A stretch of 64,000 nucleotides of DNA from Takakia lepidozioides (lineage: Eukaryota; Plantae; Bryophyta): the NCBI GenBank assembly GCA_030704615.1, contig CM060732.1, forward strand, positions 59,768,001 to 59,832,000, written 5' to 3'. Numbering within the stretch: position 1 is the stretch's first letter; each line of letters starts with the position of its first letter. The notes under the pieces were generated by a model, which ran no database searches, was not told where the DNA came from, and saw only the letters and a list, made by a program, of their open reading frames with translations. Below are positions 31,555 to 60,380 of the stretch, one piece after another. The position numbers and the translations under genes were made by a program.

Positions 31555-33420
31555 TGGAGACATGATACTGCCACTGTGACAACATGAAAGTATCCAAAAA
31601 CACGTAACAGAGATGAGGAGAAGCTGTGGATGAATACTTTTCTGACCCAAGTCAATGCTGGGACACCGAGGCAAAAGGTGAATGCTTGATACAGGAGAGT
31701 AGTAGACGCAATTCAGTATAGGAACTAGTGTAATAAGCTGAGTTGGGTGTTTTGTAGAACAAATCTAGCTGTCATTATCAGCTGCAAGAGACAAAAAGGT
31801 GAATGCCTGTTGGACTACAGAGAGAAGCAGATGCAATATAGAATTGGAACTACTATTATAAGAGGGCTTGGGTGTTTGTTGGAAGAACTTCACGCCGTCA
31901 GTGTCAGCTGCTAGTAGCAAAGCTGAGGATATATTTATGATTTGTACATAGGCAGGGATATATAGCTGAAGGACCAGGGATAGAGGTCCAGATTTATCCA
32001 AGAGGGCCAGATTCCAAACACAAGATTACTTATAATTCCCTGTGGATCAATAGCTACAAGTGGATAGATGGTCAACTGGAAACAGCAGCGGCAGCAGCAC
32101 AATTGATAGAACAAGGCACTGCTGATGAAGTTACCTTCTTCAACACATTTCGCCCTGTTTTTCCTGCTATCAGAGTCGTCCCTGAATTTTGATGTTGAAT
32201 TCTACAAGGTAGCTGAGGAGAAGCTCTGGAAGGAATACGTTTAAGACCCCAGTCAATGGTGGAACAATCGAGGCAAAAAGGTGAATGTCTGTTGGAAGCA
32301 GACGCAAATCAGCATAGGAATTAATGTGACAAGTAGGGTTGGGGTGTTTGCTGGAACAATTCTAGACTGTCATTGTCAGCTGCTAGCAGCCTATTGATAA
32401 AATCAGGCACTGGTAATCAAGGCACCTTCTTCAACACAATTCACCCTGTTTTTCCCTCTAATCGGAATCGGCCCTCATGTTGAATTCTGCAAGTTAGCTG
32501 GTTGAGTGAACCTTTGATAGTTTGGAGTGACTTTGACATGATACTGTCAATGTGACAACATGAAAGTATCCACATGTAACAAAGGCGAGGAGAAGCTATG
32601 GAATGAATTCTTTCTGACCCCAGTCAATGGTGAGACAATCGAGGCAAAAAAGTGAATGCCTGATGGATTACAGAGAGTAGCATATGCTATTAAGCATATG
32701 AACTAGTGTGGTAAGTAGGGTTGGGGTGTTTGCTTGAACAATTCTGGGCTGTCATTGTCAGCTGCTAGCAGCAAGGCAAGGATGTATGCATGATTTGTGC
32801 AGAGGTATGGATAGCTGAAGGGGCAGGGATAGAGTGTGGGTCCAGATTTCATCCAAGAGGGCTGGATTTCAAGCTCCAGATTACCTATAATTCCATATAA
32901 AATTAGGCACTGGTAATCAAGGTACCTTCTTCAACACAATTCACCTTGTTTTTCCCTCTAATCAGAAATCGATCCTAAATTTTCATGTTGAATTCTGCAA
33001 GTTAGCTGGTTGAGTGAACCTTTGATAGTTTGGAGTGACTTTGACATGAAACTGCCAATGTGACAACAGGAAAGTGTCCAAAAACAGGTAACAGAGACGA
33101 GGAGAAGCTGTGGAATGAATACTTTCTGACTCCAATCAATGGTGGGACAATCGAGGCAAAAAGGTGAATGCCTACTGGATTACAAAGAGTAGCAGATGCC
33201 ATTGAGCATATGAACTAGTGTGATAAGTTGAGTTGGGTGTTTCCTCTAGAGAACAAATCTAGGCTGTCATTGTCAGCTGCTAGTAGCAAAGCAAGGATGT
33301 ATGCATGATTTGTGTAGAAGCATGGATAGCTGAAGGAGCAGGGATAGAGTGTGGGTCCAGATTCATCCAAGAAGGTTGGATTTCAAGCTCCAGATTACCT
33401 ATGATTCCCTGTGGAAGGAT
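31555..33420. repeat. Degenerate tandem array, ~500-bp unit, about 3-4 copies
   Basis: CATGA(T/A)ACTG..TGTGACAACA..AAAGT at ~31561, ~32537 and ~33046, with shared downstream blocks (GAGGCAAAAAGGTGAATG, GTCAGCTGCTAG). Confidence 0.8.
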
Positions 33421-34739
33421 AGCTACAAGAAACCTACGTAGATGGTCAATTTCTTGTTGCGGTAGTGCTTAGCAACATCGTGCTTGAAGAATGAAGTATA
33501 TTTTGGGAATATATATAGGCAGACTAGTTGAAACACCATTTGAGTGTCTGATGTATTAACATCCAATATCGTTCGAAGGTGCAATGTCCTCTGAGGTTGT
33601 GTTGTGGTGTTTCTATGGATGACATGTTTGATTGTAGTTACGTCTTTCATGTTGTATCATGTTGTTGTTTCTGCCAGTCTATGCAACAGGGTTGGTGGTA
33701 GAATACTTTGCCACTCTTTGCAACTACCAACAGGGTTGGGGGTCGATTCGTTGGTCATTGAAAGATTAATGCATGTTCTCTTTCCCTGCATAGGGGTTGT
33801 GTCTTGGTATAGATGGCCTTTCCTCTTTGCCAATTGTTGTGCTTATGAGAGCTCCACAAAGTTAAATTTCATTTTAATTTAATTTAATTTAATATCTAAA
33901 TTAGTCATTTAAAATTAAATAACATTTAATAAATTGCAAAATCTACATGATCAACACGTGTCCGTCACACATGCTCCAACGAGACCACGTGCCATCTGTA
34001 TTGTTGTAGTGATATAGTCATACCCATAGTCGTGTAGTCATAAAGATATGACTACTCCACTGCACCATCAGGTGATGATTACATATGTCAATGCCCAAGG
34101 ATCCCACGTGTCACGCAGAGGCCTCTCCATGTAGGCGCAACGTTGTAGTGATTTAGTCGTAACCTCAGTCATAACTTTCAGTTGTGTAGTTATATTTGTT
34201 AACCCTATTTTAACTAATTCTAGACTTTTGGCTTAAATCCGGACCAAACTTAATATGTATTTGAATTAAAATTAATTCAAAATTTGTTAATAATATCTTG
34301 GATAGTGTGATTGAACTTTGTGAAATTACAAGTGATGTCATACTTGCTTAAAAATGTAACATATAAGATGTCCATTTGACATTGAAGTGCTTGTGAAGTT
34401 GCAGTGTAACTCAACAATTCATTGAACGTCGACTGGGAAGTCAAATGATGTAATATTACATTATGTTACAATCACAATAAACAAATGTGTCGAATCCAAC
34501 ATGGGATAGACTCATAGTACTCTATCATACTTAATATAAGTTGATAGTAATTTTGATTGAATCTTCATGTTGACAAGCACAATATTCATAGACAATGCCA
34601 TTGGAATGATGTATTGGGTGTGAGAGGGGCAGTAAAATATTAAAATAGCGTGAACATTAGGAAGATGACCTACTAGGGCAGTAAAATAAGGTTTGGGGTG
34701 TAACTAGATATATTAAGTGCAATAAGGTCCAAGTTTGTG

Positions 34740-35860
34740 GTGATTCGGAGAAGGGTTTAGGGTTTTAAAGGGTTTAGGATAGAAAGAGAGAAACAAATAT
34801 GGACGACTCTAAACCGAATATAAAAATGTAAGGGGAATTTGATATCTATGTAATCATTCTATCATACGTTATCCAACTTGAAAATTAAAGAAAACATTAA
34901 GAGAATGATACAAATTTTACAAGAGGTAACATGGTAGTACAAGAAGGTTTGGAGTTTATTATTAGTAGGGTACTACACTAAGGTTTTTGGTATATGGTAA
35001 AAGTAATGGTTTAGGGTGCTAAGGGTCACGCTTAAGCTTGGGGTAAGAATTATTAAGGGAAGGGTAAGGGTTTAGGGTTTGGATTTAGGGTAGAAAGAGA
35101 CAAACAAATATGTAAGACTCACACATGGTAGTACAATAACTTGGTTTGGAGTGTAAGTAGGGTAGTACACTAACATGGTTTTTGGTATATTATGGTAAGA
35201 GTACTAATGGTTTAGGGTAGTAAGTGTCAGGCTTAAGCTTAGGGTAAGGATTAAGGCCAGGATAAAGGAATGGGTAAGGATTTAGGGTTTGGATTTAGGG
35301 TAGTTCAAAAGGACAAACAAATATAGAAGACTCACACATGGTAGTACAATAACTTGGTTTGGAGTGTAAGTAGGGTAATACACTAACCTGGTTTTTGGTA
35401 TATGGTAAGAGTACTAATGGTTTAGGGTAGTAAGTGTCAGGCTTAAGCTTAGGGTAAGGATTAAGGCCAGGGTAAAGGAATGGGTTAGGATTTAGGGTTT
35501 GGATTTAGGGTAGTTCAAAGGGACAAACAAATATAGAAGATTCACACATGGTAGTACAATAACTTGGTTTGGAGTGTAAGTAGGGTAGTACACTAACCTG
35601 GTTTTTGGTATATGATAAGAGTAATGGTTTAAGGTAGTAAGTGTCAGGCTTAATCTTAGGGTAAGGATTAAGGCCAGGGTAAGGGTTTAGGGTTTGGATT
35701 TATGGGAGTACACAAAGGTTTTTTGTATATGGTAAGAGTAATAGTTTAGGGTACTAAGTGTCCGGCTTAAGCCTATGGAAGGGTTAAGAGAAGGGTAAAA
35801 CGAAGGGTAAGGATTTAGAGATGATGGTAAAGGTATAAATGGACAAACAAATATAGAAGA
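34740..35860. repeat. ~210-bp tandem repeat rich in telomere-like TTTAGGG
   Basis: CAAACAAATAT anchors at ~35101, 35314 and 35524, with partial units flanking; each unit has several TTTAGGG/TTAGGG. Confidence 0.85.
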
Positions 35861-36363
35861 CTCGCACTCACTAGAGCGAGACATTGCAAAAAAACATTTA
35901 GACCGGATTGGAAAAGAAAGAATCCAGGGGTTGTGCCAACATTTTTTTTTGGGGTGCATTGTTTGTTTTGTAAGCCAGAATCCCCCATGTCACGAATATA
36001 TGTAGATGAACAGAATGTACAGCAGTGCAGAGTCCAACACAGCAGAAGGAAAATAGATGAACGTCCACTGCCCACTCGAGGTTCATTGCGACAGAAAAAG
36101 AAGACATGAAGGATCACCCAACGCAAACACGAAGGGAAAGAAGCGTAAAGAAAATTTTATATCTTAAAATAAAAGACCGGAAATAACCTCAACATTTAGT
36201 CCATGGATGGAAAATGGTTTGCAAGAAGGAAACCTTCAGGTATCTGGCTGAAGGTTAGCAACCTCCAAATTCGCGCGCGCCTTCACTGCTTCCACCGCTG
36301 TAATTCTCTTGGTGCTATTTCTTGTCATATTTTTTCGTGGCGGCATTGTCCACACGACATTGT

Positions 36364-39300
36364 TCACGTGGATCCATTGAGCAGGATCTGACGGGTTGTA
36401 CTCCCAAACTTTTGACCAACAGTCCCTGTAAAGTCTGAGGGGTTACCTCTTTTCTTCGGTCTCCACCACTTCACCTTCACCTTCTTAAAATTAGGATCTT
36501 CCCTTTCTCGGATGACATCTGAAATTGCCATTCCCATCCAGATCGGGCACGTCGTTGGGTCATGAGGGCGAACGAGCACAAAAAACCCTTTCTCAATATC
36601 CTTGAACGGATTCAAGGGTATCCTTGGACGCTCACACCTAGGGCCACAGTAAGGTTCTGGAACTTCATCCTCATCTTCTTCCAGTATCTGTGGCTGGATG
36701 TCATCCCTCCGATGGTTTGAAAACCAATTTGTTTTCGGCGAAAATCCCTCAAGAAGCTGAATACGATCCGGAATGTCCTGCATTGGCTTATCAAGTTCGG
36801 CGAGAATATTTCCCCAGTATTGGTTATATTGTTCCATTACACCCCGGTAATGATCGTCAAGCAACATTCATTTGGTCCAAAAATCTTTGTATTTCTTAAT
36901 ACCATTTTTTATGAATGACTGTTTTTCTGAGGAGTCGTCCCCGACTCCCCATATCGGTCTTCTTGGAACGACATCTGGGTCTCCTTCAGGGAGATATGGA
37001 GTCCCATCAGGATTGGACTTCCACATCGTAACGCTGGAGTTTGTAGGAAGCCACTCCGAATCCGTAGCTGCTTCTTGTACTTCATAACGGGCCAGCCATC
37101 CGCATCTTTAAAAAATCGAAAGATGTGCATCTCTGAGATCCCCACCAAAGCCTCCTTTCCATCATCAATACAACCCTTAACAAACTTCTTGAAGTCGGAA
37201 ATCTCCTGTATGATTTGAGGAATGAATTGCATATCTTGGGGGATCATGAATGACCTCATCAAATCCGGAAGAATGTAGGTGTTGCGTTCCTTTAGCTTCT
37301 TCGAGAGATAGCTAAAGAATCCGTCAATATCCTCATGGATGTGCCCGACCATGAGAAAACCAAGCTGGATCTCTTCAAAGACATTTTTGGCAGTGAGGAA
37401 GGATATGAAAGCAAGCATCCATCTGTTCTTATTGTCCTTGGAGGAGTTGTCCATCTGCAAATAAAGTCGTCTAGGAAGTGGTCGAGCACCACGTTTATCG
37501 TGCGGCCTGCAGGGTTTCACAGCCTTCAAACATCTCGATTTATCTCTCATGAGCGTTTCAAAAAAATCATTTTGAACTTCAGTGTCGAAAATGTTCATGG
37601 ATTCTCGGCATGTCGGCTTTTCCAATTGGCGCAGGCACCGAGCCAGCGACACAATTGTGAAGTTTGAATTGTCTTTCCAAAAAAAGGAAAATTGAGCGTA
37701 AGCTCCATCTCCGTGTCCGTGCGTAACCATTCCTGTCAATGAGACAGGCAACTGACCCAATCCGGAGACCATCTTGTTCGTCGTCTGTATCCTCGAAATA
37801 GCCGTTTTCCTATGATCCATCTTATCATGAATAATACATAGGAACTCCTCCGGAACCATAACAGACTCATTCCTCCAGCTATGGTACAGCCTTCTGCATG
37901 ACTCTTGATGCCTCAAGTGCAAATCAAGCGCCCGCTTATGTGCGACCTGTTCGGAACTTCTCTTAATCGACTTCTTGATCAAGTCCTTGAACATCTCGCA
38001 TTCTGTGCACTTAGCAAAGGTGCTTCCTGTTTTCCGAACCTCCACGTTAGGAAGTATTCGATTCCGTATACGGCTTATAGCTGGCTGCGAGACTCCTTTC
38101 AAACCGAGCAGTCTGTTTGTCTGCACCCCAATTCCCCAACAATGTCAACATCCACTGGGCAGTGGAGGTTCTACAAAGTGGAAGAACAAGAAAGCATGAT
38201 GGCATCAAAAAGAATAAAATCATTCACAGTATTTTGAAAAACGAAAGGGGACAACGAATAAAAGTCACCTCGTTGGACTCCTCTCGAATTCTCTTCCAGT
38301 TCATTTCGGGTGGCAAAATTCTCAAAGTATCCCGACGTCCCTCTCCAATGCAACATGTTTTGTGAGGCATAAGGTCAGTATTGGCATTGATAATGGACAT
38401 AATGCTCCCCTCTGCCTGGAGTGTCCCTGGTCGCGGCCGCTTGACGCCACGATTTCCGTGGAAAGATGACAAACAACCCTCTTTACTGAGCTTTTTGTAC
38501 TCCATGTACGTTGACCTTCCAATTCCGTGTATTATCCACCATGCTTTCTCGCAAACATCAACACCTTCTATCGTAATATACCACCTGCGCGATGACCCAT
38601 CCATAATGTGAAGTCGTTTTGAAACATTCAATCCAAGTTCTCTCTTCTCATCGAATGACGAACCCCAAAATGCAGTACGAATTGCCAAGGTTTTTCTCCA
38701 ATCAAAATACTGGCAGCACTGAAGCTTGCAGCAAGGTTTGCTGCTCACCGACCTCACTTCATCCAAAGTGAGATTTTTCTTGCACCTTTTTGAGTCCTCC
38801 ATATTGGATGGATTTTTCTTCCTAGTAAAATGCCTGTATGCTGCTTTCAATACGCTTGTACCATGGTCGTCATTCTCCATGTCACTGCATGGTCGTAGGA
38901 AATTTTCGAGATCAACGGAGAGTATCCGGCCATTTTCAAGAAGTCTTGTTTTTGTTAACGGCCATTTCACAATCGACATGAGTGAACCGGACTCTCTAGA
39001 GATTGTTCTGGTGACCAGAACCCCAACATCGTCCTCTCCGAGTTTGTCATTCAGAATGATCTCGTTAGGAATGCATGCTTGAATTCGGCCTTTGAACAGG
39101 GCGTTTCCGTCCTCCCCAAGAAGAAGACACTGCAAGTTTCTCCAACATTCTCTCCCCAGACCTGCAGGCAGATCCCCCCCAGTCTCACCATTGGACGGAA
39201 TATCATTGCTTTTAGTGCTTTGTCCTTGATAATCACTACCTTCTGTGATGGAATGACATCCTGGGTTTCTCGGGGATGATGAATCCATAGTTTCATGCGT

Positions 39301-39490
39301 GCGAACACATGACACGTCCCACACAACTGGAGTCCCAATCGCCTCCTTCAATGTATCAGCATCCATGTGTCGATAAGGCAGAGGACATGAGCCGAATGCG
39401 TCATCACAAAAGATCAGGGTAACTGAAATGGTGGACGAACACAAGTGGTGTCCGTGGCAAGTTCCATCCCCAGAAACATTCAGGCCAACC
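36364..39490 (-). pseudogene. Intron-containing DDE-like transposase (DUF7869/Sola-like), frameshifted at the C-terminus
   Basis: Cys-rich CCKLQCC and VCEKAW; phase-0 GT-AG intron 38268-38121; CTEC..H zinc-like motif; IIHDKMD, LYLQMDNSSKDNKN, FLMVGHIHEDIDGFFS as a putative acidic triad. Family assignment is from recalled motifs. Confidence 0.65.
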
Positions 39491-39820
39491 ACTAGGCTAC
39501 AACTAGTCAGTCACTAGGCTGCCACTATGCTGTCCACTATGGCAGTCACTAGTCCACACAATCGCCCCCCTAGCTGGTGCTTAGGTCCCTCTAAGTCCAG
39601 GTAGCCACAAGATGTGATAGTGACCATAGCCTCACTAAGTCCTCTACCACTATCCCTACTACACTCAAACTCGATAGATGAAGAGGCTGGGTGCAAGAGT
39701 TGCCCCATCGTTAGTCGCCATCTTGCAACCTGTGAACTTGAGCTTGGGATCTCATGTATTGACTCCTATGAGCTTGGCCTCCCATGTCTTGTTAGCTGCC
39801 TCCAGTCATGTCCACTGCCA

Positions 39821-39950
39821 CTATCCCAAGCAGTGTGGACACAACCAATCTCCGTCAGGAACCTTCTCAAGAGGTGGTGTCAAGCATCCCATATGCCAAC
39901 CCCTTGGGCATCGATCACACACTAGCATTGGCAGACCCACAGAGCATGCA
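39821..39950 (-). pseudogene. PHD finger (C4HC3) at the integrase C-terminus
   Basis: Hand translation: CMLCGS/(small deletion, frameshift)/MLVCDRCPRGWHMGCLTPPLEKVPDGDWLCPHCLG*. Confidence 0.9.
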
Positions 39951-40097
39951 CCTCAAACCTGCAGGTACCACTGCCAAGTTTGGGTCAACTCTGCCATCGA
40001 CATTGGGAAGGTGACATGGCGCACAATTACGCACATGGTCCTTCCAAGTCATGCTATCCCGACCCTCCAAGATCAGGACCCCTGAGGGCAACACCTC

Positions 40098-42790
40098 TCA
40101 AACCCTCAGAATAACACGCCCTGCAGTAATATCCAGAGTCGTAGGAGCAGTCTGCTGCAAATAAACATAGTCACCAGGGCTAAACCTCCGAACCCCAGGA
40201 CGATATCCTCCACCACGTATAGTGGCATACCTTAACGTATCACGGTGCTGTGCATTGGCAAGGTTCTCAAAAGCCATGGGCATGACATTCTTGAACAACT
40301 CTGCACGTTGATCACATGCACGTACCCACACGTCCGGATCATCAAGGTTAAGGACTTGAACAGTGTCCCTACGAATGGTTGTAGACAAATCCGACTCTCG
40401 GCCAAAGAGAAGGAAATATGGTGAGAAGGAGGCAAGTGATACTTGTTTGCTGAACCTCTAGCCCATGGCTAACCAAAGAACCTGAAGATCCCAATCTCCT
40501 AGGTGTCCCTTCTGCAAGCCATACTTGCGCAAACCCCTCTTCACCGTCTGAACAACTCTCTCTGCCAAGCCATCGGCCTCAGGATGATCCCGAGAAGTGG
40601 TGCGGTGGTCTATCAAGGCTTTATCACACAAAGCCTGAAACTCCCCCAAGAACTCTCTCCCTTGGTCCGTGAGTACCTCAGCTGGAGCACCAAATCGGCT
40701 AAGCACACGATCCAAGAATGCATACGCAGCCCCCTCACTAGCCTTGTCAAGCAATGGAACCAACTCAATCCACTTGGAGAAGTGCTCCACCATCACCAAC
40801 ACATATCTGTGGTGGCGCATAGTCAGTGGCAACGGTCCTGCGAAGTCAAGACTCCACCTGTAGCCCAATCCCATGATTGGTAAAAGATGCAACTGTGGTG
40901 TAGGGGCGTTGAATGAAGCACGCACCCTGTCACACACCATACACCTAGCCACGAACTGTTGCACCTCTGTATGCATACCACGCCACCAATACTGCCCCTG
41001 CAGTAAACTGTGAGTGCGTCGCACTCCAAAATGCCCCAACTCCTCATGGGCATGCCGCACTAACCGTGCACACTGTGTGGGGTGAGGCACAATCCTCACC
41101 CGACCATCCTCCCATACTCGAAGTAGGTGTATCCCCTCCCACTTAAACCTCTTGGCTCGTTGCAGGATCCGATCCCTCTCCCTGGTAGTCACAGTGGCTG
41201 CCGTGTCTCCCGTGCGGAGGTAGTCCAACACAGCCGAATCCTCATGTATATCTCTGGTACCACCTGGCTCATCACTAGCCTCAGGGTCCTCAGACACTCC
41301 GTCTACAGTCATCCCTGTTGTAGGTCCAACCTGACCTCCCGATGCCAAGATACACAAAAATGCAGATGCGTGCCATCCCGACACCATCTCCTTGTCCGTC
41401 TCACCATGCCACCGAGCTCCAGTGTCATCCTGCTGGCTCGTGCATGGATTGCGACTCAATCCATCCGCATCCCGATTGACCAAACCCGGTCGATGCACAA
41501 CCTGAAAGTCAAATTCCTTGAGTATGAGTGCCCATCGTGCAAGCTTCCCCGTAAGCTTGTCTGACTCCATCAACCACTTGAGTGGCTGGTGATCCGTGAC
41601 AAGGGTGAAAAGATTGCCGTATAGATAGCACCTGAAGTGTGCCACGGCCCACACTGCAGCTAAGCACTCTCCCTCATATGAGCTGTATTTAGCCTCTGCA
41701 GCGTTGTTCGAGCGGCTAGCATAAGCCACTACGAACTCTCTTCCCTCATCATCCACCTGTGTGAGCACCGCTCCAAGCCCCAGCATGCTCTAATCCGTAT
41801 GCAGCTGAAAAGGACGCCCCCTGATAGGTCGTCTCAGGATAGGCGCCGAGGTCAACCTCGCCTTGAGCTCTTGAAAAGCTCTTTCCTGCTCATCTTCCCA
41901 CTGTCACTCCTGGTCCACCTTGGTCAGCTTGGTTATAGCCTTTGCAATGGTACTAAATCCCTTGACAAACCGTCTATAATAGTTTGCCAACCCCATGAAA
42001 GCTCAAACTCGGCTCACATCCGTGGGGCGTGGAATTTGTGCAATGGCCTCTACCTTAGTCTGTTGTACCCCCAATCCTCCAGGGTATATCATGTGACCCA
42101 GATACTCAATCTGGTTGTGGAAAAACTTGCACTTCCCCGGATGCAACTTCAATCCGTGCGCTCTCAAGCGCTCCAATACCACCTGAAGGTGTATCTCATG
42201 CTCCTCCACCGTAACACTAAAGATGATGATGTCATCTATGTAGCACCGAGCAAAGTCTACCCCTGCTAGAATCCTATCCATGACTATCTGAAACTCTGCA
42301 GGAGCATTCTTAAGCCCAAATGGTAAGAACCGCCACTGATATAGGCAATCATTGCCGTGATCATTGATCCCCCAAAATGTCGTCTTCTGCTTGTCCGCCT
42401 CCTTGATTGGCAACTGGTGATATCCGGATCATAAATCCAAAGTGCTAAAGACCTTAGCATGCCCGATGGCATCAAAGATCTCCTCTGGTGTTGGCATGGC
42501 ATACTTATCAGACTTGGTCTGACGATTTATAGGCCGGTAATCACCGCACATACGTCTCTCCGTCCAATTGCCATAGACATCCTTCTTGGCTGGCATCACT
42601 GTGGCTGAAGCATACTCTCCACCAGAGAGCTCCACCAAACCTGCGTCCCAGAGATCTTGAGTCCTCATCTGAATCAAAAACCTCTCCATGTCACTGTATC
42701 TATAGGGTCTCCGAAAGATTGGCGTGTCAGTGGCCAACTCAATACGGATCTCTTGACCCTTCAGTGCTCCCAAGTCCTTCAAACTGAAGG
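40098..42790 (-). pseudogene. Gypsy RT, RNase H and integrase
   Basis: RMCGDYRPIN, FSTLDL*SGYHQ, LPFGLKNAP, CYIDD (RT); VAYASRS, ECLAAVWAV, TDHQPL, DADGLSR (RNase H); HEELGHFG..CMVC, WSLDFAGP, VLTDQGREF, ADGLAER (integrase). Confidence 0.95.
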
Positions 42791-43239
42791 CAAAGCAATT
42801 CCTGTAAGCCCTCAGGAACCGCCATATACGTCGTCTCTCTCCTCCGGTGACAATGGGTCCAATGTCAGGCTCCCAATTGTCCTCCGTAACTGCAACCTTA
42901 AGTCCAGTGGGCTTAGAGGTAGAGGACGCGTCCAGTGGTTGCTATGTTGCAACCTCTTGAGCAGTACTCCCTACCTGCTCAGTCAGTGACAAGGCCTCAT
43001 CCTGCCCCATCATCTCATCCTTAAGGACTTCCTCCACCCGAGAAAAATCCCCAACCTCATCTATCACCGCCACCTTTGGCTGCCAACTCCCTCTGAACCT
43101 CGAGCACCTCCCATGTGTGCCATGGATGCCTGCACCCCGTGGTCCTCACATGCTCGCCGCCACTGACTGCCTGTACCGTCTCGGTAGGCAGAGAGACCAT
43201 CAAGGGAAGTGTACTCCGCACTCTGCGTTGCTCAGCCAT

Positions 43240-44200
43240 AGCCAAGCTGATAATCCAGGTCAAGGAATTGAGATCCATTGCTTGCCCCAACACCTGACGA
43301 CATGATGCCTCAGAAAGAGATGACACCGCCGTGGTACCAGTGGTAAAACCCATTGCCCGCTCACGCTCGTCAGCATTAGGCTCCACTAACTGCTGCAACT
43401 GAGCATCCCACAGGAGGCCAGGTCCACTATCCCGGAAAGCATGCGATCCTGGGAAGCTGAGCAGTGTAGGTAATGCTGCTCGTGGTTGACCCACCTTGTT
43501 GACCACTGCCAAAGGCGAATGGTCATCATGTCTCACACGCTGAGACTGCCTCCCTGTGTCCAGAATGCTATCCACTGTGAGATGTGCTGGCCGCTGCACC
43601 CCATCAAATGCACGCTTGAGCAGTGCGGGTGGCATCAAGTTAGTCCACCATAGCTGTGGACGATGAGCCCGTGACCCCACTGTAGCTGCATCTAGCAACA
43701 CTGCTGACCCAAGCCACGACCGGACTTGATGCACACTGGCCATCACCCTGGCCCGAGAATCGCCCATCAGTGGCACATTCTCCAGGATGTATGCTGGAGA
43801 TACAGCTTGATGAAGCTGCAAGTGGCGCAAAACCCGCACCATCTCCCAAAACAGACCCGACCTCGAGTCTCGCAATCCATTGCCATGCTCGGCTGATGAA
43901 TGCCCTTGGCAGGGCCAACCTGCCACTACCAGATCAATGGAGCCAACCCGCTCCAAATCCTACGCTCCCAGCAACGAAATGTTTGCTGGCAAGGCCTGCT
44001 GATATCCACGAATTGCAGACACCGGCAACAAATCAGGGTACCGCTACACCAACTAAGCAACATGACGAAGTGAAATGCGTCATGTAGTCTCATCCCTCTC
44101 CACATACAGGTAACGCCGAACTCGTACACCTGCCTGTAACACAGCAGCCAATCCGGTGCTGATCCCGCCAAACAAGTCCAGAAGACAAATGCCTTCATCC
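43240..44200 (-). pseudogene. C5-cytosine DNA methyltransferase domain (DNMT3-like) inside gypsy pol
   Basis: One frame carries motif I LLDLFGGI (44161-44184), II YLYVERD, IV DLVVAGWPCQGHS (PCQ 43906-43914), VI YILENV (43774-43782), VIII AHRPQLWWTN, IX ERERAMGF and X LGQAMD; nonsense codons at 44080, 44053, 44044 and 43960. Confidence 0.93.
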
Positions 44201-44399
44201 GGATACTACCACACAATAGATGTGGTGTCCAATGGAGACAACTGAGGTGGTCCTGGTGCAATCCCCGCACTCTCCTCCTCTCCTGACGGTACAAAAGCCT
44301 CCACCCAGGCTTGTTGCACCCGTCGATCAGCATCCCGCTGCAAATCCTTGCTCGTGCCCACAATGGAGTCTGAGCAACCATGGTAGGCAACTCCGCCAT

Positions 44400-45226
44400 A
44401 CCATACATGTCATCCTGCTCTCCCGGAGGTGGCACATCCTCTGAATGAGCGTTGCCCTCAAGCAACTCTCTAGGCCAACTCACTGCCGCTGTGAATGCTG
44501 CTAGTGTCGGCATCTTGCCTCGCTGGGCAACCGTAACTCTTCCTATGAATATTACAGGGAGCTGCACACGCCGACCCTCCCCTGACTGCCATGCAGGCCT
44601 ATAGGAAGCTGACTCCTCCCAAAAATCCAAGGTGAAGCCCATGGGGTACAATACTGCCCCACCAACCAGGACATCGTATGAGACCGCGTCTTTCACAATG
44701 GCCTTGGTTCGCGTCACTGAGCCATCTGTAGGGTGATCCGGCCGTAGTCTGATAGCCAACTCACGCCGTGTCACATCCTCCACTCATCGATCTCAACCTC
44801 ATGCTCCCGCCTGAACTCATGGTAATCATCCATAGGCGGCCCCTCAAGGTACTGAAACAACCCCTTCCATGCCATGAAAGGCGTAAATAGTTGTGGATTG
44901 CGCATTTGCTGCAAATCACACCAACTATCAAACTCTTGGATAAAATCATCTAACTCGATGGTGCCCACCGCCCCAGAGTACCTTCGTGGCCCCTTGGTAG
45001 CTCCATACATCTCTTCCATTGTGTCCCACAATAATGGCAAGGAAACAACTTGCACCGCCGGTATGAGTCCTCCTGATTCACAATCCGAATCAGATTCTTC
45101 CGTAGAAGACACAGGAGGTGAAGGTGGCCTAAACCGCACACCTCGTCTCATGTACCCACTAGTATCGCTAGTGCTCAAACTGGCACTGTCCCCAGCAACT
45201 AGTGGCACCTCCGTGTTGACACTCAA
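44400..45226 (-). pseudogene. gag N-terminus joined by an internal deletion to the protease C-terminal half
   Basis: PRRYSG..ELDDFIQEFDSW..LEGPP (gag) switches abruptly at ~44780 to YDVLVGGAVL (retropepsin C-terminal motif); the catalytic DSG/DTG is missing. Confidence 0.7.
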
Positions 45227-45899
45227 CCGGTCATGAACATGTCCTTAACCCCCTCTCCACAAGGTAACCGGGTAGAGAACCTGTTGCGGCTTATGGTTTG
45301 GAATACTAAGTTCCTAACATAGCCTACACCTGTACCTGCATCCACCGCAAACACTCCTATGGTTGGCTGGTCATCACCTCCAACCTCACCACAGGAGAAA
45401 CAATGATGGTCTAGCTGGTCATCACCCCAGCCTCACCATCGACAGCATGCTCTAGGACTGGCCGGTGATCAAATCCGGACCAATCACTTATAAAAACAAG
45501 CGCCCACACAAAACTAGCATGGTGCACAGTCAAGCATGCAGGTATGGAGGGGATCCAAACACAAGAAATCAGAACGACAACTCCCCCACACCAAAAACAA
45601 CTCCACGGTGTTGCTCCTGCAAGGACACCCCAGCCCAAACCCGGACTGACTCTTGCCTCCACCTACGGAAAAGTCTTGGCCTAATGAGAGGGTGGAAACT
45701 ACGAGGAAGAGAAGCTAAAGCATTGCCTAACCCCAGCATGCCCTCATCCCAATACTCTTCCTCTCCTCTCTTCCCTCACTTGCATGACCATGGGAATATC
45801 ATGAAGATACTCCTCAAACCGCCCTCCACGAGCTTCAAAATTCGGCCTTCAAGACCACATGCCAGTCCTTAGGCAGTCCACCAGTGCCTCCACGAGTCA

Positions 45900-46840
45900 G
45901 CACAGGCTGTCCACAGGTCAACACGGGCCACCACAGACCAGCACAGGCCCACACAGCTCACTGGTCACAGCCGTCACAGCCCCACACAGGCCACAGCCTG
46001 TCACAGCCCTACACAGGTCACAGGGTCACAGCCCCACAGGCTGCAGCCTATCAAAGCCCGTCACAGCCCCAAAGGCCACATGTCACAGCCTGTCACAGCC
46101 CATCACAACCCCAAAGGCCACAGGCACAGCCTGTCACAGCCTACAAAGGTCACAGGGTCATAGCCCCAAAGGCCACAGCTTGTCACAGCCCCTCATAGCC
46201 CCATAGGCCACAGGGCACAGCCTATCACAGCCATAGGGCATAGCCTGTCACAGCCCCTCACAGCCCGTCACAGCCCCATAGGCCACAGGGCACAGCCTGT
46301 CACAGCCCTACACAGGTCACAAGGGTCACGGCCCCAAAGGCCACAGCCCGTCACAGCCCACCACAGCCCGTCACAGCCCGTAACAGCCCCACAGGGCACA
46401 GGGCACAGCCTGTCACAACCCCTCATAGCCCGTCACAGCCCCAGAGGCCACAGGGCACTGGGCACAGCCTGTCACAGCCCGCCACAGCCTGTCATAGCCC
46501 GTCACAGCCCCACATGCCACAGGGCACTGGGCACAGCCTGTCACAGCCCGCCACAGCCTGTCATAGCCCCTCACAGCTCGTCACAGCCCCACAGGCCACT
46601 GGGCACAGCCTGTCACAGCCCCTCACAGCCCGTCACAGCTCGCCACAGCCTATCACAGCCCGTCACAGCCCCACAGGGCACAGGGCACAGCCTGTCACAG
46701 CCCCTCATAGCCCGTCACAGCCCCACAGGCCACAGGGCACAGCCTGTCACAGCCCCTCATAGCCCGTCACAACCCCACAGGCCACTGGGCACACTTGTTA
46801 CAGCCCCTCACAGCCCATCACAGCCCCACAGGCCACTGGG
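45900..46840. repeat. Minisatellite of ~10-bp TCACAGCC(C/T)G-type units
   Basis: Dozens of GTCACAGCC, CCACAGG and GGGCACAG units with strong C/A strand bias. Confidence 0.92.
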
Positions 46841-47269
46841 CAGTTTAGCCATTTCTCCAAGGGGTTTAGCCACGCAAAGCTAGGGTTTGTGTCTCTTGGA
46901 CTCTAGGCTTCTTTGCGCCGAGCTATGGCGGCTGTGAAGAAATCAGCAAGGTATTCTTGCTCTTTCGGCTCCCACACACCACCAATAGTAGCCCTAAGCC
47001 ATGAGGAAGATGGTTGCCACAAACCAAGCCTTCTTTCTCACTTAGACTCCCCAAACACGCCACTAAACTCAATGGCAAACAACCAAGCCTTGCTGGTTTC
47101 CAGCCCTTGTGAGCACTCATTCAAGCGTTTCCCTTGGCCATAGCATCTGTCTTAGAGCCTATTCCAGCCCCCTACACCTGCCACTTCAAGAGCCATGCTC
47201 TATCTAGGCTTGAGGTCGAAACCCCAACTCAGAACACGCTCTACAAATGTCGGACTATCACATAAGAGC

Positions 47270-47680
47270 AGATCAGCCCCTTACCTTCTCTTCTAGTTCT
47301 CTAAAGCTTGAAAACAAAAGCCCAATGGACTGAAGGCATGCTCCACACATGCCCCACTCTCACCACAAGAGAATCAGCCCCTTTGCTTTCTTTCTTGCAC
47401 CCACCAACCTGAAAATACACGCTTCAGCGGGCTCGAAGCATGCTCCACACATGCCCTACAGGGAAACCAGCCCCTTCCTTCCTTTCTTGCACTCCCAAAC
47501 CTGAAAGTACAAGCCTTCAACAGGCTGAAAGCATGCTCCACATATGCATTGTTCTCACATAAGGGAAGTCAGCCCTTCCCTCTTCCTTGCTTGCCCTCCA
47601 AGCTTGAAGATGGAAGCTTCAATGAGCTGAATACATGCTCCACACATGCAACCTCTTCACACAAGAGGTATCAGCCCCCT
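47270..47680. repeat. Degenerate ~100-120-bp tandem repeat, about 4 copies
   Basis: CATGCTCCACA(C/T)ATG and CAGCCC recur at ~47337, 47439, 47532 and 47634. Confidence 0.7.
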
Positions 47681-50600
47681 ATCTTGGCTCCTTAGCTCCT
47701 TGATGCTCTCTAAGACAAGACTAAGCACTCCACAGCCCTTGCCAAGCTCCTGAAACCCTAAGGCTTACATTTCCAGCCACAAGACACTCCTCTTGTGGTG
47801 CAAGAGCTCTTCTTCCAAGCTCTGAAACCCTAGGTGCACATTCCATGGCCTTGCCGCACCTCTTAGCTCCTGTTCTAGCCCTGCTCTTGCCATGACAAGA
47901 GCCCTCTCAATGCTGAAGCTCAGAATTGAAACCCAATCTCAACATACTCCACAACGTGCACTGATTTGCCCCAAGCCAAATCAGCCCTTTCGCTTGGTCT
48001 TGCAATCCTGCAGCATGGTGCTTTCATCTCTGAAGCTGAAGATCGAATGCCAAGGTCTACCACCTCGTAACCCACATCGCCTCCGCTTCTAACAACCAAG
48101 AGCTCCATGGTGCTCCTTGCATAACAACCTAGTTTCTCTCATTCTCAAGCAAAAACCACAAGTGCTACAACTAACTCGTATTTGGCACTCACAGATACGA
48201 TCTCATCTTTCTCGAGTGATAAAAAAGAAGAATACAAGCACAAGCTCATGCGAGCTCACAAAGCTGAAGCATAAACTCATGCATATATAACCACTCAAAT
48301 ACAAGTCAAGCCAAGTGCACCCCACGCCATGGGGAATCCACACTACGGCGCCATAGCTAGGCGCGGTGAGGCTCAACTCGAGAAAGATGAGCCTCCCGCG
48401 CTTGCCGTGAAGATAACCACTCCAGGGCCTAAATCTGCCTTGACCCCTGGATTGACACTTGGGCCAATCCCAAATGTCAATATGTAAAAGCTAGTTTCAT
48501 ACTAGTGGTAGAATAACTTGACAGGATCTACACTGGGACTGATAAAAAACAATTGGAATTAAATTGGAGTATGAGGGCGGAATATAGACTACATCTATCG
48601 GAACTGTCAGATGAAGTCACAATTGCCAACCTCCACTGGGCAGTGGAGGTTGGATGATATCTGTTTGATGACATCAACCACATGGATGAACAATGGATAA
48701 TGAAGAAGCCCTCTGTAGATGAAAAAGTAATTATATGGATGGATGAATAATAATGTGGCTACTGCCCAGTGGAGGTTTGGGAGTAACTTTAGACAAACAA
48801 AAGCAAGTTTAGCTGGTGCACATGGAGAGTACACAAAAAATTGAGTATCATACTATCCTATGCGAGAAATGTGCAGTTGACACCTGAGACTAAGGAAGCA
48901 GGGAGAGACTCAGAGGCTGCTTCAGAAGTACCCTATGGGCAGAGTGGTGCAGGACATGCAAAGAGGTACACGTTGTCTAGAGAGGTGCAGGATGTTCAGA
49001 GAGGTGCGTGAGAGAAAAGAAGCAAGTGAGAGGTTCAAAGTGGGAAGTTGGTGTTGTGTGGATTCGGACGTTATCTAGAGGTGACATGTAACTTTCATCT
49101 TTGAATCGCTCCAATGGCAGTGTGGTATGCTTTCTCTCCCGGATCGATTGTGGCCACCGTGGATTAAGGCGGAATCGAACGGCTTATTTCAACTCGCGAA
49201 ATCTCGACTTCATTGAAAGTGTGCACAATTTTCCATTTATTGACAGTAGCCATTGTTACATTAATTATGGAACAAACGATAATGGCCGCGATCAGACTGA
49301 ATTCTATCGTACTTGTACGTTAGTAGGACTACAAGTCTAGCATCATTATCGTGCGGCTCTGATAGCAGACTCTGGAATAAGCGTGAAGGATGTTGATTTT
49401 GACAAGTGGCTTGGAGAAATGAAGTCAGACGGATCACCACAACTAATTCGGGACTGCACATTAACAATCGATCATTATAATTAGTTGGGAGGAATCCGGA
49501 GGTGAACCATAAAGCACTTTGAGATTTTTCTGTTTATATTTATCGTGCTGTTACAGTGAATAAAACACTTGGGCAGGGCGGGGCATTACATGCCGGCGCA
49601 TTGCATTGGACAGCGAGGGCGGTGCATCACATGTGTGCGGAATGCTCTGTCGTGCCTTGCTTGCTTGCACATGTTTAATGTAGGGATGGACCCCTCGTGT
49701 CGGGTATCCCTCGATAAATGGGCAGTCCCTATGGTGGCTCTGGACCTTAAATCGAGGAATGCCCGACACGAGGGGCCATCTACTATCCTTAAAGCCGTAT
49801 GTCTGTCAGGGAATATTGACGCCTGGCGACTAACAGCCGAAAGTAATTGTGGACAGCTCAATATGAGACAATGATTATACAGTGTGATGAATCTGTAGGT
49901 ACAGCGTTGTGTCCTCTGGCATATTGAGTTTGAAACGACTACCTAGGCGTGTCACGTGGGTGGTCACATGTGCGTTTGGGGCGTGGGTTAAGGTTTGTTG
50001 GCTTCGAATCTATTTTAAGATTTTTGTAAGCGTGAGGGTTGCAGAGTCTGACCAATGGCGTCATTACAATCATTTCGTCCTTTTTTCATTTGTCTATCCA
50101 GTCGTCTGTCCAAACGTGTGTGCATTCGTGGAACAAAAGTTGAACTAATTTCATCTGTGTGGATGAACAGTATTAATGTTAGTTTGCGTGGATGGGGCAG
50201 AACATCCATTTGGGCCGCGCTACCGTTCAATTTCGGACGGAGGTGATGGTTCAAATCATCCTTGAAGGTCGCTTATAAGGGGTGCGCTCTTTGAGCCCGG
50301 CCTTTGGGCTTCCCATTTTCTACGCGTAAGCGCTGCGCAAGTGAGAGCTTAATAGTTGAGAGAGGAGAGCGTGAAAGAGAAGAGTTTTGGAGCTCATTTT
50401 GCAGCAACTGGACACTGGAGCGTGGAGAGAAAGAGCAGACTTGGCCGAGTGCAGAGAGAGGAGAGGGTGAAAGGTGAGAGAGTGAAATAGGTGAAATTTG
50501 AAGAGCGGGGAGGAGAGACCGGACAATGGCGAGTGGAGATTGATGAGTGTAGAGGCGAGAGCACAGTGCAATTACCGGCAGGCGGAGGTGCGGAAGAGAG

Positions 50601-51646
50601 TATTAAACGAAGGATTGTGGTTGCAGGGGCACCAAAATGGCCGGCACAAGCAGGTACAACATTAAAAACTCCATCTTTTCGTCTTCTGTTTCATATTTTG
50701 TGTTGGCCCGCTCTCGATTCATGTGGCCTGTTCAAGATTCAATTCGTTTGGATCCTGCTTCATTCTCTGCTGCACTGCACTGTCTTCAGTGCTTCAGTCC
50801 GTGCTTTAGTGGACATTAGGTTTCTGTTTCATTGTTTGCTTCGTTGTTTGCTTCAATGCTGTTTCATTCTCTGACAATTCATTTCACTCCTGCTCCATTC
50901 TGTGCTTCAGTGCATTCCTGCGTCATTGCTTCACTGTTGTTTTTCAATTCACCGATGGTTTGTAGGGTGGTTTTGTGTGCAATTGGGTTTGTGTGTGCTT
51001 GTTTTGGTCGATTAGGGTAATGGTTTAGGGTGGCGGGAGATTACCGTGCTGGTTGTATTACTTGTTTTGTTCATTGTGGTGGTTTATTGAGGACAATGGT
51101 TTCGGAAATGCCCGGATGTTTATTTCTCAACCGTTTTCTTGATCCCCAAATCCAGCGTTAGTTGATGCATTTCTTCCCATTCAAATTCGATTCTGAATGG
51201 AAATTTTCATTTCTTATCCAATTATGTCGAATTCGGCAATTCTGAAAAACCACGATAGCCTAGTCTATTTGTATTCTACAGTAGACATATGCTAACAGTA
51301 AGCTTCGTGCAGGCTAGAGTAGAGTGTTCGTAGACCCATGTCATGCACATGAGCAACCAGAAACTGGAACCTCAACTGCCCAGTGGAGGTTCGCGTGAAT
51401 TCTGTATGCAGAAGCTGAAAGACATTTTTTTAAAGTAAGGACGAAATCGGATAATTACGGGAAAATTGAAATCAGTTTGAGACGATGTGGGAACGAGTGA
51501 TGGAATCATATGTGTAACATTGTAAGTGTGACACATACTTTCCAACGAGACTGGGATACGATAATTGGGAACCTCCACTACCCAGTGGAGGTTCGATATT
51601 TCTTTGGGTCAGCCAGTTACACACTCTGATTAGTTTTTATGTCAGA

Positions 51647-52300
51647 ATGAGAAAGAGGAACGAGGGTGGGGAACCAGTGTCTGACGATGAGTACAAGACA
51701 GCCAGATTAAATTGGAGCAAAAGACGGTGTTCGGTAGACGTGATGGAAGCGGACCGTCCAGATCAAAAACATGGTGTTTCGGAACCAGATGAAAAATCCA
51801 GTTGGGGGTCTACCGAGCCGAACAAAGTGTCTGTCAATGACGAAAATGTGACTGTAGAATCCCCGTGGAACGCATCCAAATCTCCGAACAATACATTTGA
51901 AGTCATCTGTAAGGATACCCTGGCGGAAATAAGAGAAAGCGTTCATGTAAACAATGATATCAACGGATCTCTTGCCTACTCCCAAGATTATCCGACATAC
52001 ACCCCTTCAGACTATTCCCCAAACACATTGGCGGCGATACGAGTGACCATTTTTGGATATCCAGCATCTCCGGGTTACTCGCCAGCATCTCCTGAATCCA
52101 TATCAGGATCTGAAGGATATTATCCTCCAAACTTCCTCCTGGACACTGAAACGAGCGGGGGAGTCCTGGAACTACTGGATGTCTCCGGATCTCTAGGATA
52201 CTCCCCTGCGTCTCCTAATAATATCACCGGATCCCCAAAATATACCCCTCCAGACTATTCGCCTGATACACTCAGAGAGATAAGAAGGAGCATTCTGTAG
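51647..52300 (+). CDS. Hypothetical protein with YSP/YTP repeats resembling the RNA Pol II CTD heptad
   Basis: YTPSDYSP, GYPASPGYSPASP, GYSPASP, YTPPDYSP; splice acceptor TTTTATGTCAG directly upstream. Confidence 0.5.
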   Translation: MRKRNEGGEPVSDDEYKTARLNWSKRRCSVDVMEADRPDQKHGVSEPDEKSSWGSTEPNKVSVNDENVTVESPWNASKSPNNTFEVICKDTLAEIRESVHVNNDINGSLAYSQDYPTYTPSDYSPNTLAAIRVTIFGYPASPGYSPASPESISGSEGYYPPNFLLDTETSGGVLELLDVSGSLGYSPASPNNITGSPKYTPPDYSPDTLREIRRSIL

Positions 52301-52622
52301 TTCTTGGGTATATAATCTAGAATCGTCTGAATATAGTGCGAGAAGTTCCTTAGTATATTTTGGACGAATTAGGTTCGAAGATTTCTATTGTAGATTAGTC
52401 CTGTTTCAGGATGATGTACTCAATGGCTCCTGAGCCTCATTTTCATTAAAGTTTTTTTCTTCAACATCTGTAAAATATGGAGGATTTCCCATTTCATGTA
52501 GAAAGACTCGTATATACGAACCTCCAATGTCCAGTGGAGGTTCTCATTTCTGGAATGATGGATGCTAGTAAGAGAGATCCTGTTATTTGATTATCTAATG
52601 AATTTGTGTTTGGTTGTAACAG

Positions 52623-53043
52623 AAGACATCCTACACCACAAGATTGTGTCCCGGGATTGATTGGAGTTAGTCTTCACATTTCAAAACTGAGCATACCGCT
52701 ATTTTTGAGCTTAACCCAGAGGGAAAACCCGATGTTGGTTTTGTTCCTGCATGAGGATGCGAGAACCCCCAGGACGTTTGGTTTTAAAGTGGAGGTGGGT
52801 CGTCTGAACAAGTCGTTGATGAGTGAATGCGTTGTATTGGGTTTTAGATTTCCAGACGAGGGCTCAGTATTTACAGACGTAGGTTTGTCGAGGGCCTGGA
52901 GTATTTTTCTGGATCTTCTGCACGCAATGGGGAACAACATTCGCAAGAAGCGAGCACTACAGGAAGCATCAAAGCCAAAGAAGGGAAAACGCAAGTCGTC
53001 GACAGCCGGCAATGATGACAATGAGGCCGGGACTTCCGCATGA
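52623..53043 (+). CDS. Hypothetical protein exon ending in a basic NLS-like tail
   Basis: Open frame after the acceptor GTAACAG; RKKR and KPKKGKRK. Confidence 0.4.
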
Positions 53044-53076
53044 AAGAAGAAACAGAAGGAGGATCAGGATCCAGCA

Positions 53077-56884: not shown

Positions 56885-57646
56885 GGCAAGAAACATTCGA
56901 GTGCTTGACATCAACCACTCAACCAAGAAAAAGTTTTGCAAAAGAAAAGTTGAAGCGAATTTTAAGAAGCTTCAAATTGAGAATGACAATGTTGCTGAAG
57001 AGGTTGACGACGGAGACGAGGATGAGGAGGAGGAAGATGAAGACTTGGAAGAAGGAGGCGGACATTCCGAACACGTAGAAGAGGACGAGGGCATCGATGG
57101 TAACGGGGACAACGAAGGCCACGATAGTGACAATGCAGATTGTTGGGAGGCTGGACACCTAGATGTAATTCAGGACTTCAGAACTCAGTCACAGGATGGT
57201 ATTGAGAACATCACCCAAGACGTTGCGATCCACAATGTCGTGATTCTGGATGGGGTTCGTCGAGTTCAAGCGAGAGAACTAAGAGTAATCATGCTTCACC
57301 ATCAAGGGGTGCGGAGGCGAGCTCAATCGAGGTGCGCGGCAATTTTATTGGGAGTTCAGATGACTGGTTCAAACCTGTAGAAGGGGACGAGCCGGCGTCA
57401 ATGTCCCCGTCTCCCGCGAAAGAGAGGGTAGAGAGAGCGAGGACAAAGAGCCCGTGTCCCACAAAAGACAGCGGACACAGAGGGAGGACTAAGAGCCCGT
57501 CCCCCGCAAAAATGGACAGTGGTGACAGAGCCAGGACTAAAAGCCCGTCTCCAACAAAAAACAGCGGAGGCAGAGGCCGAACTCAGAGCCCAACTCGCTC
57601 TCAAAGTGTCTCCCAGCATGTCAATTTGGATGTAGGTAACGAATGA
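56885..57646 (+). CDS. Acidic, then RxKSPSP-repeat, low-complexity exon(s)
   Basis: Poly-D/E tract followed by RARTKSPCP, RGRTKSPSP, RARTKSPSP repeats; frameshift between the two parts. Confidence 0.4.
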
Positions 57647-60325: not shown

Positions 60326-60327
60326 CT

Positions 60328-60339: not shown

Positions 60340-60380
60340 TTAGAGTTCAGTACGCGATCGTCCTTGGGATTGGCCTCATC

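Follow-up and report, generated by a model that had tools for sequence, protein, structure and literature searches.

The closest described system to the element considered here is KnitGypsy-Dnmt3 of Klebsormidium nitens, a retrotransposon with DIRS-like repeats (de Mendoza et al. 2018, PMC5890265), and a 2025 paper and a 2026 preprint give one sentence each to such elements in streptophytes (sources are cited throughout for the portions available). In the literature searched, from which subscription papers were mostly absent, we found nothing on bryophyte copies, a readthrough stop, self-priming or the junction described below. Here we describe an element of the moss Takakia lepidozioides in a 64,000-nucleotide stretch (the window; assembly GCA_030704615.1, contig CM060732.1, positions 59,768,001 to 59,832,000 of the forward strand). 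Window positions 39484-48523 hold, on the minus strand, a decayed, high-copy Ty3/gypsy element with the order gag, protease (PR), DNMT3-like cytosine methyltransferase (MTase), reverse transcriptase (RT), RNase H (RH), integrase (IN) and PHD finger. Our overall reading, which we hold with moderate confidence, is that the window holds a decayed member of a green-plant Ty3/gypsy lineage with a DNMT3-like MTase ahead of a likely leaky stop codon, whose integrase likely opens a CA-NN-TG palindrome in circularized cDNA.

The methyltransferase and its element family

Copies of the family were studied through Logan contigs (runs X1, X5 and X12) and metagenome loci (L-numbers); proteins carry P-numbers. 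An initial annotation, made from the sequence alone, had read gag, the C-terminal half of a protease, an MTase, RT, RNase H and integrase in this order on the minus strand of 39821..45226, and Pfam together with frame translation bears the order out. The extent was too short, as the element spans 48523 to 39484, and both the C-terminal PHD finger and a conserved TAG-CAACCA at 42944-42936 had been missed. The six MTase motifs quoted there all lie in a single minus-strand frame (44184 to 43273), the DNA_methylase profile matches the stop-tolerant translation (Pfam E 1.4e-10, stops read as X), and the catalytic PCQ and ENV residues are indeed kept in spite of the stops in this frame. Ranked against PDB sequences, the MTase is nearest DNMT3A/B (E 1e-18), followed by DRM (1e-10 to 7e-8) and HhaI/HaeIII (3e-6), and an AlphaFold model of relative P0156 (pLDDT 75, pTM 0.80) matched DNMT3A/B/C in 33 of 33 among the Foldseek matches listed. 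Its motif order is unpermuted, which differs from the permuted order of DRM (PMC5890265). By its sequence and fold rankings, the enzyme is DNMT3-like, as first proposed; a bacterial or phage origin was disfavored by the PDB sequence ranking rather than by a tree. Across the family, the catalytic residues are retained in nearly all copies (C 69/69, E 63/68).

The MTase is integral to this family and not peculiar to one copy. Summed contig depth along the element is tens to more than 100 times that of the flank in X1 and X5, which is not a copy number, and depth over the MTase is as high as over RT in both runs (in X1, 0.82-1.22 million versus 0.96-1.10 million). An RT match lies behind the MTase in 46 of the 72 loci examined. 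In trees of 66 elements, all 19 rows with the MTase before RT form one clade by RT and by MTase (FastTree support 0.997 and 0.999), with the same three main subgroups, and the two trees are congruent (Mantel rho 0.70, 0/999 permutations), more weakly so among the other 47 elements (rho 0.32). Purifying selection on the MTase, whose absence across copies would have counted against the initial annotation, was found between subfamilies, where omega is 0.07-0.28 for unsaturated pairs; many pairs were saturated. Omega was 0.07-0.09 for the window against L001, L012 and L013, and 0.14 for the unsaturated pair L041-L046. In most pairs, the MTase changes faster than RT and IN.

The window copy is heavily damaged. 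The MTase is out of frame with both its neighbors, the protease (break ~44356) and RT (break ~43075), and at both breaks a small indel separates sister contigs from the window (48 and 22 X1 contigs); relatives are in frame. Five stops fall in the MTase frame and seven in the RT-integrase frame, one of which (TAG at 42944) is not decay. An internal deletion at 44773/44774, with loose contig ends on both sides, has removed most of gag and the N-terminal half of the protease; relatives hold ~1.75 kb at this site. The 5' boundary is set by repeat depth, which drops to flank level past ~48513, and by flank-only contigs that start exactly at 48524. The features, in element order, are as follows.

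48217..48523, minus strand: repeat A1, the 5' end of the element, starting TGTCA and ending TTTTATCA (repeat depth and flank contigs)
48376..48391, minus strand: 16-nt arm in A, predicted RNA 5' end and self-primer (exact reverse complement of 48202-48217; 0/100 shuffles reach 16 nt)
48202..48217, minus strand: primer-binding position directly behind A, not of the tRNA type (TGG), complementary to the arm in A (same geometry with other sequences in L043, L033, L046 and L102)
45925..46842, no strand: degenerate 10-nt tandem array within the ~3-kb 5' leader (repeat search; covered at repeat depth)
44774..45244, minus strand: N-terminal part of gag, cut by the deletion 44773/44774 (best segment 58-77% identical to gag of 25 loci)
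44356..44773, minus strand: aspartic protease, C-terminal half, with linker; frame break ~44356 (alignable to intact relatives P0011/P0153 at the C-terminal part of their Asp_protease_2 region; no Pfam match for the window fragment alone)
43075..44355, minus strand: DNMT3-like C5 cytosine MTase with unpermuted motifs, its five stops in the N-terminal part, frame break ~43075 (Pfam, PDB ranking, fold match)
44184-44161, minus strand: MTase motif LLDLFGGI
43920-43897, minus strand: MTase motif GWPCQGHS
43791-43774, minus strand: MTase motif YILENV
43668-43639, minus strand: MTase motif AHRPQLWWTN
43368-43345, minus strand: MTase motif ERERAMGF
43290-43273, minus strand: MTase motif LGQAMD
42936..42944, minus strand: TAG-CAA-CCA, an in-frame stop whose context is of the UAG-CARYYA readthrough type, 51 codons ahead of the RT query start
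42087..42557, minus strand: RT core, YIDD at 42242 (Pfam RVT_1 E 7.7e-32)
41511..41900, minus strand: RNase H (Pfam RT_RNaseH E 3.9e-35)
40581..41072, minus strand: integrase, H2C2 finger and DDE core (Pfam H2C2 E 1.4e-15, rve E 2.5e-12; 34 residues from the second D to E, as in 40/40 matched relatives)
39821..39956, minus strand: PHD finger at the integrase C-terminus, frame break ~39935 (Pfam PHD E 2.6e-10)
39686..39719, minus strand: conserved motif of the 3' untranslated region (UTR), GGCGAYTAAMGATGGGGC...GCACCCRGCC (kept in 7/7 aligned elements)
39563..39571, minus strand: polypurine tract (PPT; sequence inspection and alignment)
39484..39562, minus strand: repeat B1, truncated (sister contigs run past 39485, linking an A end to the B start)

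A search of 1.84 billion representatives returned 248 proteins at E <1e-30. Among the best 150 of these, 57 hold the MTase only, and the rest have either the MTase before RT or the order RT-RH-MTase-IN-PHD. Named land-plant relatives (41-73% identity) are Calypogeia fissa, Marchantia polymorpha, M. paleacea, Riccia sorocarpa, Sphagnum troendelagicum and S. tenellum, and none of the 120 proteins listed is assigned by name to a vascular plant, most of them being unnamed. The MTase lies right behind the protease in Closterium and K. nitens relatives and behind RNase H in Scenedesmus (chlorophyte) relatives; the same MTase domain has shifted position within a single gypsy lineage. A large group named only as Scenedesmus (P0019, P0269, P0060, L061, L062, L064) has it between RNase H and integrase, and Pfam fails to detect the MTase in P0060, P0049 and L064. 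The K. nitens protein GAQ93235.1 has the order CCHC-PR-MTase and falls on the MTase-before-RT side of the MTase tree (SH-aLRT 97); from its species and domains, we infer that it is a copy of KnitGypsy-Dnmt3. As judged by this grouping, the window element is a member of the KnitGypsy-Dnmt3 lineage. The initial annotation was right about an occurrence in land plants, which includes liverworts and Sphagnum. The moss element is more than an analog of the charophyte elements, since GAQ93235.1 has the same gag-PR-MTase order and groups with the moss element.

Viral contigs yielded only distant phage C5 methyltransferases (0 loci in one search, 30 in another). Prokaryotic genomes yielded two loci, including L102, a whole element in a bin labeled Synechococcales (cyanobacterial); L102 and P0174, from an Obscuribacterales metagenome-assembled genome, are likely plant contamination of bacteria-labeled records that could be misread as horizontal transfer. 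The identical 127-nt ends of L102 were rejected as evidence of a circle, as they fit assembly of a repeat. Fragments of the family have been annotated as host DNA methyltransferase genes (P0163, P0242). Two proteins of the P0142 cluster, P0403 and P0405 (4799 and 3665 amino acids), are one-frame retroelement proteins with an OTU protease, RT, PHD, PCIF1-like domain, C5 methyltransferase and RNase H and no rve match; by sequence, they may form a different element class, possibly with two methyltransferase types.

A conserved stop, split repeats and probable self-priming

Among the 72 loci and the window taken together, the junction between MTase and RT could be scored in 48. An in-frame stop lies 45-52 codons ahead of the RT query start in 46 of the 48 loci (34 TAG, 12 TAA), and CARYYN follows it directly in 44 of these 46 (7 CARYYA), compared with 4 of 464 other in-frame stops. 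Two loci depart from this, L028, which has a codon of the TAC type in that position, and the algal-type L066. The loci cannot be counted as independent, since clustering of 51 junction segments gives 43 groups at an identity of 98% and 7 at 70%, the largest of the 7 with 39 members. The stop is present in all six land-plant-type groups at 70% identity, five of them with an intact CARYYN member (L039 is decayed), and exact CARYYA follows it in the window, L011, L041, L045, L046, L050, L065 and L102. UAG-CARYYA is the readthrough signal of the tobacco mosaic virus (TMV) type, and TAG-CAA-CCA of the window falls within its type I (TMV-like) definition (PMC2754532). In L046 and L102, the copies that are best preserved, the stop codon alone parts a Gag-PR-MTase frame of 1369 or 1162 codons, respectively, from a 1047-codon RT-RH-IN-PHD frame. 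Because the stop sits in a TMV-type readthrough context, the MTase is likely made at Gag level and not at Pol level. The initial view of the MTase as an integral pol domain thus stands as to integral, and its simple placement in pol fails for the land-plant clade, in which the conserved stop parts Gag-PR-MTase from RT-RH-IN. GAQ93235.1, P0001, P0050 and P0132 end behind the MTase without RT, which hints that the stop is of older origin. In the algal-type, MTase-first L066 (848-856), TAG-GGG-TGC lies right behind the MTase, a single case that resembles the type III plant-virus context (carnation mottle virus, CarMV, GGG GGC; PMC2754532).

No chromodomain was found on the integrase C-terminus, where a PHD finger stands in its place. 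For relative L046, the nearest solved PHDs are those of CHD4, PHF12, PHF21A, KAT6A and ATXR5, with likeness also to KDM5. In 55 of 57 matches, the finger has no tryptophan two residues ahead of the zinc-binding histidine, from which we presume, as a prediction, binding of unmethylated H3K4.

The initial annotation expected ordinary paired long terminal repeats (LTRs), and what we found instead were split repeats in the order A-coding-B-A-B. Self-comparison gave A1-coding-B1-A2-B2 in L043, L060 and L050 and part of it in L013, L021 and L057. Two complete direct terminal LTRs were not seen among 15 distinct flanks (18 rows in which A1 adjoins unique flank); elements were A-coding-B-A-B or A-coding-B, and B never preceded A1. 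In nearly all rows, A starts TGTC or TGTT (TGTCA or TGTTA in relatives) and B ends GACA or AACA. Six distinct elements had both ends, of which four have a perfect 4-bp target duplication and two match at 3 of 4 bases. The B1|A2 spacer is 2 nt in all six elements where it is visible (GC in three, AT in three), and the B1-NN-A2 junction forms a palindrome, CA-NN-TG, in which two element ends stand head to head inside the LTR. The palindrome also occurs in L045, L046 and L102 and in two algal-type loci, L062 and L066, the latter with a compensatory change; an automatic scan missed some loci in which comparison of termini displays it. B-NN-A behaves as the LTR because it is placed between the PPT and the primer site. 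The A2|B2 join unites a primer-defined A end with a PPT-defined B start (window family, L021, L060); in the family of the window, the A-to-B join was found in 13 X1 contigs, one X5 contig and one X12 contig, with 1-2 nt of variation. No fixed differences between A1 and A2 were found in 12 repeats. The split repeats, TG...CA ends, 4-bp duplications and internal CA-NN-TG together point to insertion of a circle by a DDE integrase.

In the window, there is no second copy of A or B, A2-B2 and the right terminus being gone, and repeat searches turned up neither an LTR pair nor a partner of the 5' flank. Minus-strand open reading frames (ORFs) at 35900-39480, likely a DNA transposon with DUF7869 (E 1.5e-41), adjoin the truncated B and may have removed the right end. 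The stem predicted for the 3' UTR motif has no compensatory pairs. Directly upstream of the PPT, an apparent hairpin at 39572-39596 has equivalents in L043, L045, L046 and L102, as judged by eye; a consensus fold recovers three pairs.

A tRNA-type primer site was not found behind A, as judged by a TGG start without comparison with a tRNA library. The bases behind A are complementary to a segment within A in 9 of the 17 starts tested, over 16 nt in the window, 17 nt in L043 and L033, 16 nt in L046 and 13 nt in L102 (each 0/100 shuffles) and over 10-11 nt in four more. The 13-17-nt sites occur in three unrelated sequences or subfamilies, and in L043, L033 and L046 a TATA-like box precedes the arm by ~25 nt. 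Self-priming is known for Tf1/Sushi and Tcn1 (PMC6317226).

Replication model and alternatives

We propose a cycle in which RNA starts inside A1 and its first 13-17 nt would pair with the site behind A1 and prime the minus strand as in Tf1, a step that we consider quite probable. Ordinary strand transfers would then yield linear (B-NN-A)-coding-(B-NN-A), with ends different from the genomic ends. Linear cDNA is the accepted precursor of LTR-element integration. Because the A2|B2 join matches a primer-defined A end and a PPT-defined B start, we suggest that the ends of this cDNA are joined, and that integrase would cut the internal CA-NN-TG after each CA, leaving 2-nt overhangs as 3' processing does; this we think somewhat more probable than otherwise. 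Two-LTR circles would give inserts of the form A-coding-B-A-B and one-LTR circles A-coding-B. During translation, most ribosomes would very probably stop at UAG-CARYYA and release Gag-PR-MTase, with a minority reading on into RT-RH-IN-PHD, and the resulting particle would hold far more MTase than RT. From its position and the activity of SymbioDIRS-Dnmt3, the MTase would most likely methylate cDNA within the particle. The scenario in which co-packaged MTase marks the insert in advance and the PHD finger steers integrase to particular chromatin is, in our judgment, evenly poised.

Several observations weigh against parts of this reading. Loci were picked by MTase motifs, which biases the view of MTase-less sisters and the catalytic-residue counts, and MTase omega is 0.40-0.96 among close decayed copies. 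A single subfamily with CAACCC, one base off CARYYA, contributes 39 of the 51 junction loci, and there is no stop between MTase and RT in Closterium and other algal relatives (P0125, P0011, P0287, P0041). Self-priming complementarity was not recovered in 8 of 17 starts. Six of 12 distinct 3' ends have B and then flank only, three of these six being rearranged, and recombination or assembly collapse could also yield such ends. The alternative form A-B-A-coding-B appears in 0 of 15 flanks though a two-LTR circle has two identical junctions, and the model gives no reason for this. The window copy has lost its right end and with it one side of any target duplication. The CpG observed/expected ratio of the element (0.55) indicates no stronger depletion than in neighboring copia elements or a host exon (0.42-0.47), and CpG and CHG ratios were uninformative. 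The K. nitens domain gave no methylation in yeast, a result that its authors call inconclusive (PMC5890265).

The frame breaks that flank the MTase on both sides might suggest that the window copy once captured a host or foreign methyltransferase gene; this is refuted by the sister contigs that differ at both breaks, the 46 of 72 loci with RT behind the MTase, the congruent trees and the purifying selection, and we give it practically no weight. It is also very unlikely, in our view, that the stop is bypassed by splicing, an internal promoter or re-initiation, or is merely inherited decay. The Candida Tca2 gag-pol stop with its flanking 300 nt gave no readthrough in yeast (PMC2194720, which also cites stop suppression in SIRE1), and the commonest subfamily has an in-frame ATG two codons behind the stop, both of which fit such a bypass. 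However, none of the eight exact-CARYYA elements has that ATG, and CAR-YYN is kept across six clusters <70% identical while the amino acids vary (QP, QL, QS), which argues for readthrough.

Instead of methylating element cDNA, the MTase might act on host chromatin (the insertion site or other loci) or contribute DNA binding or structure to the Gag product, consistent with the yeast result, the lack of excess CpG loss and the faster change of the MTase than of RT and IN. We consider this doubtful because PCQ and ENV are kept in the window and across the family, a Gag-level position would place the MTase in the particle where cDNA forms, and related SymbioDIRS-Dnmt3 domains methylate CG de novo (PMC5890265). 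Integration from a circle also has a competitor in replication of the PAT/Ngaro kind (DIRS order), in which RNA would extend into B2 and the B1-A2 junction would template the missing ends, with no ligated two-LTR circle, or in which a tyrosine recombinase would come from elsewhere. The layout A1-B1-A2-B2 is that of PAT elements (PMC4157794; PMC5890265), and this route would account for the sole occurrence of A-coding-B-A-B (0 of 15 alternative forms). It is nonetheless unlikely: TG...CA ends with 4-bp duplications are a DDE-integrase signature, the PPT and primer site flank B-NN-A exactly as they do an ordinary LTR, sister contigs differ by 1-2 nt at the A-to-B join as end-joining would produce, A1 and A2 show no fixed differences, and no tyrosine-recombinase family was detected in 16 long proteins scanned (reverse-strand frames were outside the scan).

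The remainder of the window holds a U2AF65-like host gene (~2677-13600, plus strand) with introns and a ~1200-residue low-complexity N-terminal exon, nearest, among named matches, to Sphagnum proteins (84% over 196 amino acids), followed by those of Riccia (66%), Diphasiastrum (65%), Calypogeia (60%) and Physcomitrium (53%), a ranking in keeping with a moss host. Inverted repeats of ~270 nt (97% identity) around ~4.1 kb at 15638-20287 are likely a DNA transposon. Nested copia-like gag and integrase frames lie at 20424-28186, where 24074-24904 is the end of a chromovirus integrase (SH3 and chromodomain), and two strand-skewed repeat arrays (~510-nt and ~210-nt units, the second with TTTAGGG telomere-like motifs) at 31559-35867. 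Two NIF-like phosphatase frames at 58097-59622, among unannotated ORFs at 51500-61400, are probably part of another mobile element.

Comparison with known systems

KnitGypsy-Dnmt3 resembles the moss element in its gypsy domains, DNMT3-like domain, DIRS-like repeats and purifying selection; its DNMT shares an ORF with RT (PMC5890265), whereas in the land-plant clade one conserved stop lies between them in the same frame. The host of KnitGypsy-Dnmt3 is K. nitens, and the element described here is from a moss with relatives in liverworts, Sphagnum, Closterium and Scenedesmus. In the portion available, the main text on KnitGypsy-Dnmt3 is silent on its termini, on a target duplication, on the mode of priming, on a junction palindrome and on a PHD finger (PMC5890265). 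A DNMT3-like enzyme in an abundant Gag product would predict pre-methylated cDNA, which bears on what the DNMTs of retrotransposons do, a matter that de Mendoza et al. 2018 had left to be settled; this question now reaches bryophytes, in which methyltransferase mutants exist.

PAT, Ngaro and TOC elements, including SymbioDIRS-Dnmt3, are likewise laid out as A1-coding-B1-A2-B2 and repeat the joined ends internally, and some carry a methyltransferase (PMC4157794; PMC5890265). The moss element is set apart by its DDE integrase, its TG...CA ends with 4-bp duplications, its PPT and its gypsy RT, and no tyrosine recombinase was found in the proteins scanned. Tf1/Sushi and plant Tcn1 likewise have no tRNA site and a primer site complementary to their own 5' sequence; as compared by description, they are chromoviruses with ordinary LTRs, whereas the moss element has a PHD finger in place of a chromodomain, an MTase and split repeats (PMC6317226). 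The split layout likely defeats LTR-pair finders that need paired LTRs and flanking duplications (criteria in PMC6317226), and plant transposable element catalogs may therefore lack a high-copy class. The UAG context is that of TMV-type readthrough (PMC2754532), and in the moss element the stop is behind PR-MTase and ahead of RT, a position that would set the MTase:RT ratio. Chlamydomonas Gypsy-7a_cRei and REM1 are green-lineage gypsy elements that also have a PHD finger (PMC9940879; PMC6673714); compared by description, the Gypsy-7a figure legend lists no MTase, unlike the moss element (PMC9940879).

If true, the proposed cycle would offer a natural test case in which a DDE integrase inserts from a circle first, and it would link gypsy structurally with PAT/Ngaro elements. 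The fullest version, an ancient green-plant lineage with integrase sites in an LTR palindrome, obligate integration from the circle junction, tRNA-free priming and, in land plants, an active, readthrough-dosed DNMT3 that methylates cDNA and maybe decides which junction copy is cut, would be a cycle not described before for an LTR element; it is tentative, and we lean slightly against it as a whole. DDE enzymes that open joined ends are known from the circle junctions of the IS3 family. In foamy virus, integrase was reported to cleave a palindromic 2-LTR circle junction, which is like the present proposal in that a DDE enzyme opens a palindromic junction of two ends (PMC1180852). The retroviral junction, however, forms from the cDNA ends as a side route, whereas the moss lineage encodes it within the LTR, and all ends examined come from it.

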